IMG/VR virus record: IMGVR_UViG_2563366967_000002
Location: 1 to 13,999 of that record
Direction: 5' to 3' (one strand)
From: a virus
Lineage: Duplodnaviria; Heunggongvirae; Uroviricota; Caudoviricetes
DNA length: 13,999 nucleotides
Shown here: positions 8,575-9,267 of the stretch, in pieces
Position numbering within the stretch: the first letter of the stretch is position 1
Layout of the letters: the number at the start of each line of letters is the position of its first letter
Notes under the pieces: model-generated
Told to the model about the DNA's origin: nothing
What the model saw: only the letters and a program-made list of their open reading frames with translations
The model's database searches: none
Program-made: the position numbers and the translations under genes

Positions 8575-8640
8575 GCAAGAACGTGCTGCGGTTGGATGCT
8601 ATTTTTTCCCTGAAGCGGAAAACATTACTACAGTACCTTG
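8575..8640. repeat. Direct repeat copy 1 (ybcY 3' end and downstream hairpin), matching 13935-13999
   Basis: 66 nt with a single mismatch (8592 t vs 13952 c) against the window's last 65 nt; the repeat probably continues beyond the window. Confidence 0.8.
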
Positions 8641-9267
8641 AACCTTGGTTTTAACATTCTCGAAATGCTCTGAGAGTATATGTGTTAAGCCTTCTTCGGA
8701 ATCTTTTGTGTTTGAAAAGATGCCTTTCTGATTGTAAATGCGCATCAGTTTTTGACCGAAGCTATTGTGCACAACTCCATCGCCAAGAATTGTGGCTCCG
8801 TATAGAGTTCCATCGTCAGTTAAGGCCTGCGCCGCATTGCGTATTACACAGCTTTTTGTAGATATATTTCCAGGCAGGCAGTGAAGAAGGTAAAACATGG
8901 AAATGGAATCAAATTGACCATGTAACGCCGCGGGATAAGGTTCAAAAACATCATGGCTAATTTTATGTTTAATTTTTGATTCCCCAGCCCTTGTAGATGC
9001 CGCGTTCAGGCTAGCTTCGTTCAAATCCATTAAAGATATCAGACTACTCTCAGGTACGTGAGTAAGGTAAAACCCAGTTCCAACACCAATATCCAGATGG
9101 TTGTTACCTAAATGTTCCAGAAAGTGTGGAAGAAGGTGTTCCTTTGTAGGACATCCCCATGCAAGCCGATTTGATACTCCCAAAACCCACCAGTCATAAA
9201 GCTTTAGGGTAAGTGGTGTGTAAATTTTAGCCCCATCATCTGTGTTTTTTTTCATTAATTTCACCAT
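8599..9267 (-). CDS. ybcY: Class I SAM-dependent methyltransferase (YbcY-like)
   Basis: 222 aa with SAM-binding motif I (LDIGVGTGFY). Position between two tfa fragments recalls the K-12 DLP12 order tfaD-ybcY-tfaX; symbol assigned by synteny, not by sequence search. No clear SD upstream of either candidate ATG. Confidence 0.65.
   Translation of the reverse strand: MVKLMKKNTDDGAKIYTPLTLKLYDWWVLGVSNRLAWGCPTKEHLLPHFLEHLGNNHLDIGVGTGFYLTHVPESSLISLMDLNEASLNAASTRAGESKIKHKISHDVFEPYPAALHGQFDSISMFYLLHCLPGNISTKSCVIRNAAQALTDDGTLYGATILGDGVVHNSFGQKLMRIYNQKGIFSNTKDSEEGLTHILSEHFENVKTKVQGTVVMFSASGKK

Follow-up and report, generated by a model that had tools for sequence, protein, structure and literature searches.

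The closest described relative of the gene considered here is ybcY of Escherichia coli K-12, which lies in the DLP12 prophage in the order tfaD'-ybcY(frameshifted)-tfaX'-appY-ompT-envY-ybcH-nfrA and which we found in the literature only in gene lists; no literature was found on the RefSeq accessions, nor on a moron methyltransferase associated with ompT. The stretch analysed, hereafter the window, comprises the 13,999 nucleotides (nt) at positions 1 to 13,999 of IMG/VR virus record IMGVR_UViG_2563366967_000002 and is 100% identical to a stretch of the chromosome of E. coli 04-00955 (NZ_CP035498). It contains the same gene in the same position (tfa'-ybcY-tfa'-...-ompT) at 99.3% nucleotide identity to K-12, with the start codon and frame intact in the window and broken in K-12, and with a 2.8-kb stress cassette inserted directly downstream of the window copy. 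We propose, with a probability of roughly 0.6, that this locus is a phage moron for an S-adenosylmethionine (SAM)-dependent methyltransferase acting on a small molecule, most probably by O-methylation via His129.

In K-12 the gene has lost 2 nt, the G of the start ATG together with one A of the next A-run (the 'GA' at the equivalent of ATG 9255), which destroys the start codon and leaves a TAA in frame; the other 216 codons are open and carry two substitutions, including F125S in a conserved motif. The initial annotation had described the K-12 copy as a pseudogene, correctly, and had suggested that an apparently intact copy might be worth a look. The present copy is indeed intact where that of K-12 is broken, but it is not unusual in this respect. 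Of 5426 complete E. coli genomes, 3832 (71%) contain the coding sequence (CDS) at nucleotide identities of at least 95%, in up to four places per genome. In an even genome sample, 52 of 59 full-length matches were as long as the intact 669-nt gene, and seven were 667 nt long with the K-12-type deletion, several of these being identifiable as K-12-lineage laboratory strains. An intact copy is the rule in E. coli, not the exception. At the K-12 locus, RefSeq also lists a 'nucleocapsid protein' of 45 amino acids (aa; WP_071592174.1, L002 5139-5276) that overlaps the end of tfaD and the 3' end of ybcY, and whose name or open reading frame (ORF) is almost certainly spurious.

The ybcY gene, its candidate expression signals and its phage carriers

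The gene and the signals assigned to it are the following:
8599-9267, minus strand: methyltransferase ORF from the ORF list, 222 codons, ATG to TAG
8599-9255, minus strand: most likely real CDS, 218 aa, with the second ATG as start
9261-9265, minus strand: Shine-Dalgarno (SD)-like GGUGA, 5 nt upstream of ATG 9255
9287-9315, minus strand: candidate sigma-70 promoter, with -35 TTGTAA at 9315-9310, a 17-nt spacer and an extended -10 TGaTTTAAT at 9295-9287
8549-8593, minus strand: intrinsic terminator, with a hairpin at 8593-8556 whose 3' end runs into UUUAAUUUU (8557-8549)

The ORF occupies precisely the 222 codons first attributed to it, far exceeds chance expectation for an open frame, and encodes a product 100% identical to WP_000239881.1, a 'class I SAM-dependent methyltransferase' in RefSeq. 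Its residues 5-222 match positions 1-218 of the PHROG 2132 profile ('unknown function') with an E-value of 7.9e-157, and this full-length match, together with the same flanks as in K-12 tfaD'-ybcY-tfaX', bears out the earlier assignment to YbcY. The ratio of nonsynonymous to synonymous substitution rates (dN/dS) within the family was 0.08-0.12 in seven of eight measurable pairs, with dS near saturation in the distant ones, values that speak for purifying selection on the family. The gene is an intact, real ybcY with a probably functional product.

The apparent lack of a ribosome-binding site, pointed out in the initial annotation, arose because the longest ORF, and hence the first ATG, had been taken as the start. 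It holds for that ATG (9267), where the duplex with the 3' end of 16S rRNA reaches just -0.3 kcal/mol, but not for the conserved ATG 9255, where GGUGA pairs at -7.4 kcal/mol; for comparison, the values for lom and ompT in the window are -7.2 and -6.4 kcal/mol, respectively. Met5 is invariant in an alignment of 25 homologues, nearly all of which start there, and the PHROG 2132 profile begins at this residue. In the second copy of the gene in the source genome an ACG replaces the first ATG, and the motif (A/T)GGTGAAAT(T/C)AATG is conserved in homologues from Enterobacter, Scandinavium and Klebsiella. The upstream in-frame ATG (9267-9265) overlaps the SD sequence (ATGGTGA) and is simply part of it. 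On this comparative evidence the true start is almost certainly ATG 9255, 12 nt downstream of the first ATG, giving a protein of 218 aa.

The candidate promoter, whose extended -10 element reads TGATTTAAT, had been missed in a consensus promoter scan because position 2 of its -10 is a T. In an upstream alignment of 11 family members including the window, the footprint TTGnnn, 16-17 nt and TGnT(T/G)TAAT was kept in seven of the ten regions from other genera (8/11 with the window), with a variable spacer sequence, and is present in Enterobacter (hormaechei, asburiae), Citrobacter, Scandinavium, Klebsiella, Yokenella and Salmonella. It predicts a transcription start site near 9280 and a 5' untranslated region of ∼25 nt. 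Genomic SELEX in K-12 placed in vitro binding of the RpoD-holoenzyme RNA polymerase in the ybcY/tfaX spacer, which also bears an H-NS mark (PMC3946193). The promoter hexamers given in that work (TTGATT-17-TATAAC) are not conserved, Enterobacter having TGTTAC, and the TTGTAA/TGaTTTAAT pair was therefore preferred. The in vitro polymerase binding (PMC3946193) and a microarray signal for c0651 provide indirect hints of prophage expression. At the other end of the gene, the terminator hairpin begins 6 nt past the stop codon, folds as RNA at -18.1 kcal/mol and coincides with a terminator scan match at 8570-8557; the corresponding hairpins of the second copy and of K-12 form a perfect palindrome of 11 bp common to the convergent tfa.

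A tblastn search located the protein at identities of at least 99% in 15 of 50,697 phage records, all of them Escherichia phages, which include ev243 (Nesevirus), 2G7b, Kati, Turner and the PhiR series, the last grown on E. coli C, K-12 or ECOR13; the gene is present in at least 13 isolated lambdoid phages. The gene order shared by ev243 and PhiR26_1 is J-lom-stf-(tfa)-<MT-tfa'-<alpha/beta hydrolase-<ompT-att/int (MT, methyltransferase), the methyltransferase gene lying on the opposite strand between stf/tfa and att/int, and 2G7b and the PhiR series have the gene at this position as well. Its CDS has a GC content of 40.8%, against 56.4% for J and 53.3% for lom. Because a promoter and a terminator of its own surround the gene between phage genes, because it lies on the opposite strand at the tail-fibre/att position, and because its GC content is deviant and its presence among related phages patchy, its sequence context marks it as a lambdoid-phage moron, a self-contained piece of cargo.

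Methyltransferase class and candidate chemistry

The SAM-binding motif noticed at the outset is a canonical DIGVGTG (motif I) at residues 59-65, which with D81 at the end of strand 2 aligns to the motifs of UbiG and is invariant or nearly so in alignments of 25 and of 52 homologues; D106 and D120 are also conserved in the family. The Pfam profiles Methyltransf_12, Methyltransf_23, Methyltransf_25 and Methyltransf_11 all scored above their gathering scores (Methyltransf_12 at 37.6 bits, where the cut-off is 30). An AlphaFold2 model built from 25 homologues, with a predicted local distance difference test of 90.7 and a predicted template modelling (TM) score of 0.87, displays the seven-stranded fold of class I SAM-dependent methyltransferases. 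Motif I with its strand-2 acidic residue, the fold and the Pfam scores all place the product in this class, and with every motif invariant and the model at this confidence there is no sign of the disrupted SAM pocket that the initial annotation had named as fatal to its proposal.

Phage-borne orphan methyltransferases had been suggested there to act in anti-restriction, among other roles. The orphan status itself is upheld, since no partner nuclease or specificity gene lies near the methyltransferase gene in the window or in 80 related loci. Phage carriage without a partner nuclease would suit an orphan DNA methyltransferase for anti-restriction or epigenetic control, as would a weak PADLOC match to mad2 (E 0.0033, 14 bits), the only return from that tool and rejected as a defence-system assignment. 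Against this, a regular-expression search of the protein for (D/N/S)PP(Y/F/W) or PCQ, the form of motif IV, gave no match, the single 218-aa domain has no target-recognition domain, and no DNA methyltransferase is among the structural or sequence neighbours in the best 50-60 rows of each search. Judged from sequence and predicted fold, YbcY is not a DNA methyltransferase, and the role in DNA modification is essentially refuted. The clade comparison proposed in the initial annotation thus speaks against DNA methyltransferases and in favour of small-molecule and lipid methyltransferases. A search of viral folds (BFVD) returned generic methyltransferases only, and the NCBIfam matches to CpaM (17.4 bits against 180) and RquA (16.9 against 175) fell below threshold, so that membership in either family was rejected.

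The top Foldseek matches were a bacterial phosphatidylethanolamine (PE) N-methyltransferase, the insect enzyme JHAMT and PfPMT, and the profile search of the PDB returned JHAMT (E 2e-5) and UbiG (8e-4), with the first RNA methyltransferases at E>1. The best structural match, 8ys9 (E 1.6e-12, TM-score 0.61-0.65), is of the same size as YbcY and is followed by phosphoethanolamine N-methyltransferases; together with an N-terminal helix rich in aromatics, it would fit a PmtA-type PE N-methyltransferase with which lysogens make methylated PE, a trait that could have escaped notice with the copy dead in K-12, the strain behind most lipid work. The sequence similarity to 8ys9 is marginal (E 0.045), and the TM-scores are no better than those of many unrelated small-molecule methyltransferases. 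Methylated PE or phosphatidylcholine is not known as a normal lipid of E. coli, which also counts against such an enzyme, and we consider it very improbable.

JHAMT (PDB 7EBS/7EC0), the best match by sequence to a solved structure and second by Foldseek, offers a more specific comparison. The family signature FYLLHC after strand 4 aligns with FYTLHW of JHAMT, the two proteins sharing an FY(T/L)LH motif at an identity of just ∼20% over the core, and His129 of YbcY aligns with His114, the catalytic base of JHAMT, whose mutation inactivates the enzyme (PMC8526772). All 52 of the diverse family members aligned have both His129 and Cys130, and 50 of them have Cys39. The other member of the catalytic pair Gln14/His114 (Bombyx mori JHAMT1), Gln14, lies beyond the aligned region and no YbcY equivalent was assigned to it; JHAMT, at 255-288 aa, also differs in its larger substrate lid.

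The family is broad. Out of 1.84 billion representatives searched, 429 clusters were retrieved at E<=1e-30, nearly all of them made up of single-domain proteins 215-235 aa long, and homologues of at least 50% identity occur in genomes of Enterobacterales, Pasteurellaceae, the Pseudomonas syringae group, Xanthomonadales and Noviherbaspirillum. Possible domain fusions were discarded, the longer relatives having just N-terminal extensions that lack annotation or a gene model that was probably merged with RCC1. Across genera, none of the neighbours in 80 loci is conserved, and the family gene is monocistronic and stand-alone. A Pfam scan of the neighbour families shared by several of these 80 bacterial loci gave enoyl-CoA hydratase, GATase, CorA, SDR, LysR and DUF6388, and no polyketide synthase; LysR and SDR were set aside as partners, being generic. 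The single recurrent neighbour is an enoyl-CoA hydratase/isomerase gene ∼250 nt downstream on the same strand in 13 Pseudomonas-group loci, a genus-restricted pairing seen in P. syringae, P. viridiflava, P. caspiana and other Pseudomonas, which gives a weak hint of an acyl or lipid-like substrate.

Homologues in fungi match the window protein over its full length at 35% identity (E 4e-41), score 176 bits against the family profile and have the invariant Y24, W37, C39, H129-C130, N186 and D189 in common with YbcY. Their transferred names are 'Methyltransferase ctvB', 'N-methyltransferase vrtF' and 'uncharacterized protein YbcY 1'. CtvB, AurB, AstB and DovB O-methylate the alpha-pyrone 4-hydroxyl of citreoviridin-type polyketides (PMC12312803), and VrtF is an O-methyltransferase of the viridicatumtoxin cluster that acts on a phenol hydroxyl (PMC4294208); all of them are, like YbcY, single-domain class I enzymes of ∼220-230 aa (228 aa for ctvB). 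YbcY might on these grounds be a bacterial counterpart of the fungal pyrone and phenol O-methyltransferases that protects lysogens, or interferes with signals, by O-methylating hydroxylated heterocycles, candidate substrates from competitors or the host being 4-hydroxy-2-pyrones, 4-hydroxy-2-alkylquinolones and hydroxycoumarins. If true, it would represent lysogenic conversion by small-molecule detoxification in ∼70% of E. coli, a role overlooked because the K-12 copy is dead. This elaboration is improbable in our view. Unlike the genes of the fungal CtvB type, bacterial and phage ybcY genes, in the window and the 80 loci compared, never adjoin a polyketide synthase or biosynthetic cluster, and the substrate of YbcY certainly differs from those of CtvB and VrtF.

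Several points weigh against the small-molecule O-methyltransferase that we favour. The link to CtvB and VrtF is a lead that rests on automatically transferred names and not on alignment to characterised enzymes, the characterised Aspergillus terreus CtvB not being among the matches of searches seeded with the fungal homologues. The conserved cysteines C39 and C130 are left without an explanation; the structural neighbours have identities of 12-21% and are a mix of N-, C- and O-methyltransferases, along with a few tRNA methyltransferases of comparable Z. The literature yielded no experiment on a bacterial member of the family, K-12 lost the gene without a known phenotype, and the H-NS binding suggests that the gene may be mostly silent in laboratory conditions. 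The tRNA enzymes among the neighbours bring to mind an RNA methyltransferase acting on universal tRNA or rRNA. In the sequence-profile search, as noted, RNA methyltransferases appeared only beyond an E-value of 1; the protein has a neutral isoelectric point (6.9) and no extra RNA-binding domain, the distribution is patchy and accessory, with K-12 lacking a working gene, and the closest named relatives are polyketide O-methyltransferases, all of which makes an RNA substrate a poor prospect.

The H-NS mark, the AT-rich composition and the K-12 loss, in which the deletion is joined by F125S, would also be expected of an intact yet functionally irrelevant hitch-hiker, silenced by H-NS and drifting towards the decay seen in K-12. 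A BW25113 ybcY mutant (K-12 lineage, already a pseudogene) left Hha toxicity unchanged, an ethanol-adapted strain gained a 12-gene deletion that includes ybcY, and ∼12% of the sampled genomes, many of them K-12-lineage, carry the frameshift. Such drift is difficult to match with a family dN/dS of about 0.1, with ∼88% of sampled copies free of indels, with a promoter and SD sequence conserved across genera, and with retention in viable phages that have tight genomes; a gene without function is, on balance, unlikely, though it deserves more credit than an RNA substrate.

Flanking tfa remnants, cargo blocks and the second copy

From left to right, the window holds gpJ, lom, the side tail fibre, two small phage ORFs and a tfa 3' fragment; then the minus-strand stress cassette, the methyltransferase gene (minus strand) and a C-terminal tfa remnant (plus strand); and finally the alpha/beta hydrolase and ompT genes (minus strand), a broken integrase, a further tfa remnant and the 3' end of a second methyltransferase gene. 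An Rfam scan of the window returned no RNA family. The features that surround the methyltransferase gene are the following:
5652-5768, plus strand: tfa 3' fragment, a RefSeq pseudogene, cut off from the methyltransferase gene by the 5751-8551 insertion
5888-6778, minus strand: Mn catalase of the stress cassette
6797-7303 and 7340-7846, minus strand: two DUF892 ferritin-like proteins of the stress cassette
7919-8101, minus strand: general stress protein of 60 aa, stress cassette
9324-9629, plus strand: C-terminal tfa remnant ('tfaX'-type), matching positions 75-121 only of the Pfam Caudo_TAP profile, divergent from the methyltransferase gene
9813-11297, minus strand: alpha/beta hydrolase of 494 aa, Pfam Abhydrolase_1 and Abhydrolase_4 (TAP-like C-terminal domain)
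13530-13904, plus strand: third tfa remnant, Pfam Caudo_TAP, a RefSeq pseudogene of repeat family D4, convergent with the second methyltransferase copy
13959-13999, minus strand: 3' end of the second methyltransferase copy, last 13 codons and stop, ending at the window edge

The gene had been described as wedged between tfa genes, and tfa remnants do lie on either side of it. Its description as convergent to tfa applies to the canonical arrangement and to the copy at the window edge, but not to the fragment adjacent here (9324-9629), which is divergent; that fragment lacks its N-terminus, is a pseudogene in RefSeq and survives in phages ev243 and PhiR26_1 as an ORF of 101 aa. The downstream fragment stands 2.8 kb from the methyltransferase gene because the stress cassette has been inserted between them. 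The duplicate reported at the window edge is genuine: the 41 nt at 13959-13999 are identical to 8599-8639, and the source genome encodes a complete second copy (WP_000742375.1, 218 aa, L001 15660-16316) identical at 216 of 218 aa.

A tfa 3' segment of ∼106 nt occurs in three plus-strand copies (5655-5760, 9477-9582 and 13788-13893) at 75-92% identity, each of which heads a different cargo block. This arrangement suggests that recombination at tfa ends may assemble and shuffle cargo blocks between lambdoid prophages. The stress cassette (5751-8551, minus strand, 2.8 kb) is missing from the otherwise collinear phages ev243 and PhiR26_1, and its insertion site falls precisely between the 3' end of tfa and the terminator hairpin of the methyltransferase gene; it therefore looks like an oxidative and stress-protection cargo block gained by this prophage.

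On the other side, the alpha/beta hydrolase has a hydrophobic N-terminal stretch, a candidate signal peptide, and matches the PADLOC candidate-defence entry PDLC01094 'C3a206 TAP-like protein' (E 4e-56) and PHROG 20134; it travels together with ompT and the methyltransferase gene in the viable phages ev243 and PhiR26_1. Just downstream of its stop codon, a perfect 14-bp hairpin (TGCTCCCAATGCAA...TTGCATTGGGAGCA) with a T-rich tail lies at 9757-9792 on the minus strand, likely a terminator that insulates the methyltransferase promoter from read-through. The integrase (12912-13649, minus strand) is truncated and frameshifted and lies where an ev243-like prophage meets an older DLP12-like remnant (beyond the window end, L001 15660-17513), so that the genome carries in tandem two ompT genes, ∼3.4 kb apart, and two ybcY-type methyltransferase genes, ∼5.4 kb apart. 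At the left, the side tail fibre (2982-5051, plus strand) is a single uninterrupted ORF of 689 codons and is one gene also in phage ev243; in 04-00955 RefSeq divides it between an N-terminal 'pseudogene' and a separate protein named 'phage head spike fiber domain', and this split is probably an artefact of the annotation near its Ala/Glu/Lys-rich middle.

Proposed role and comparison with known phage cargo

Taken together, the data would fit a stand-alone chromosomal gene family of Gammaproteobacteria, with relatives in fungi, one copy of which may have been captured by a phage and spread through E. coli. Transcription of the cassette would begin at an extended -10 promoter of its own, which H-NS probably dampens, and the product would be a 24-kDa cytoplasmic single-domain class I SAM-dependent methyltransferase, in which His129 may act as the general base towards a hydroxyl or carboxyl group on some metabolite or xenobiotic of low molecular weight. 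Expression from the prophage, O-methylation chemistry and any advantage for the lysogen are inferences.

The gene is already known, being annotated in thousands of genomes and catalogued as a pseudogene in K-12. What the analysis usefully adds is a corrected start (218 aa, with an SD sequence), a defined promoter and terminator, the exclusion of a role in DNA modification, and the placing of the gene in a conserved methyltransferase family with fungal relatives that phages have brought into ∼70% of the complete genomes of E. coli. Purifying selection acts on the family, yet the laboratory strain carries a null allele. Since the family is conserved, widespread in E. coli and null in K-12, the gene is a reasonable and cheap target for substrate discovery, although it has no bearing on a long-standing open question.

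Among known phage cargo, the morons lom and bor of lambda and ompT of DLP12 provide the nearest parallel. Like these genes, the methyltransferase gene is AT-rich, has a promoter and terminator of its own and is located at the tail-fibre/att end; it would likewise be transcribed apart from the late operon, and some related phages carry it while others do not. The difference lies in the product: lom, bor and ompT encode outer-membrane proteins, whereas the methyltransferase is predicted to be a cytoplasmic enzyme.

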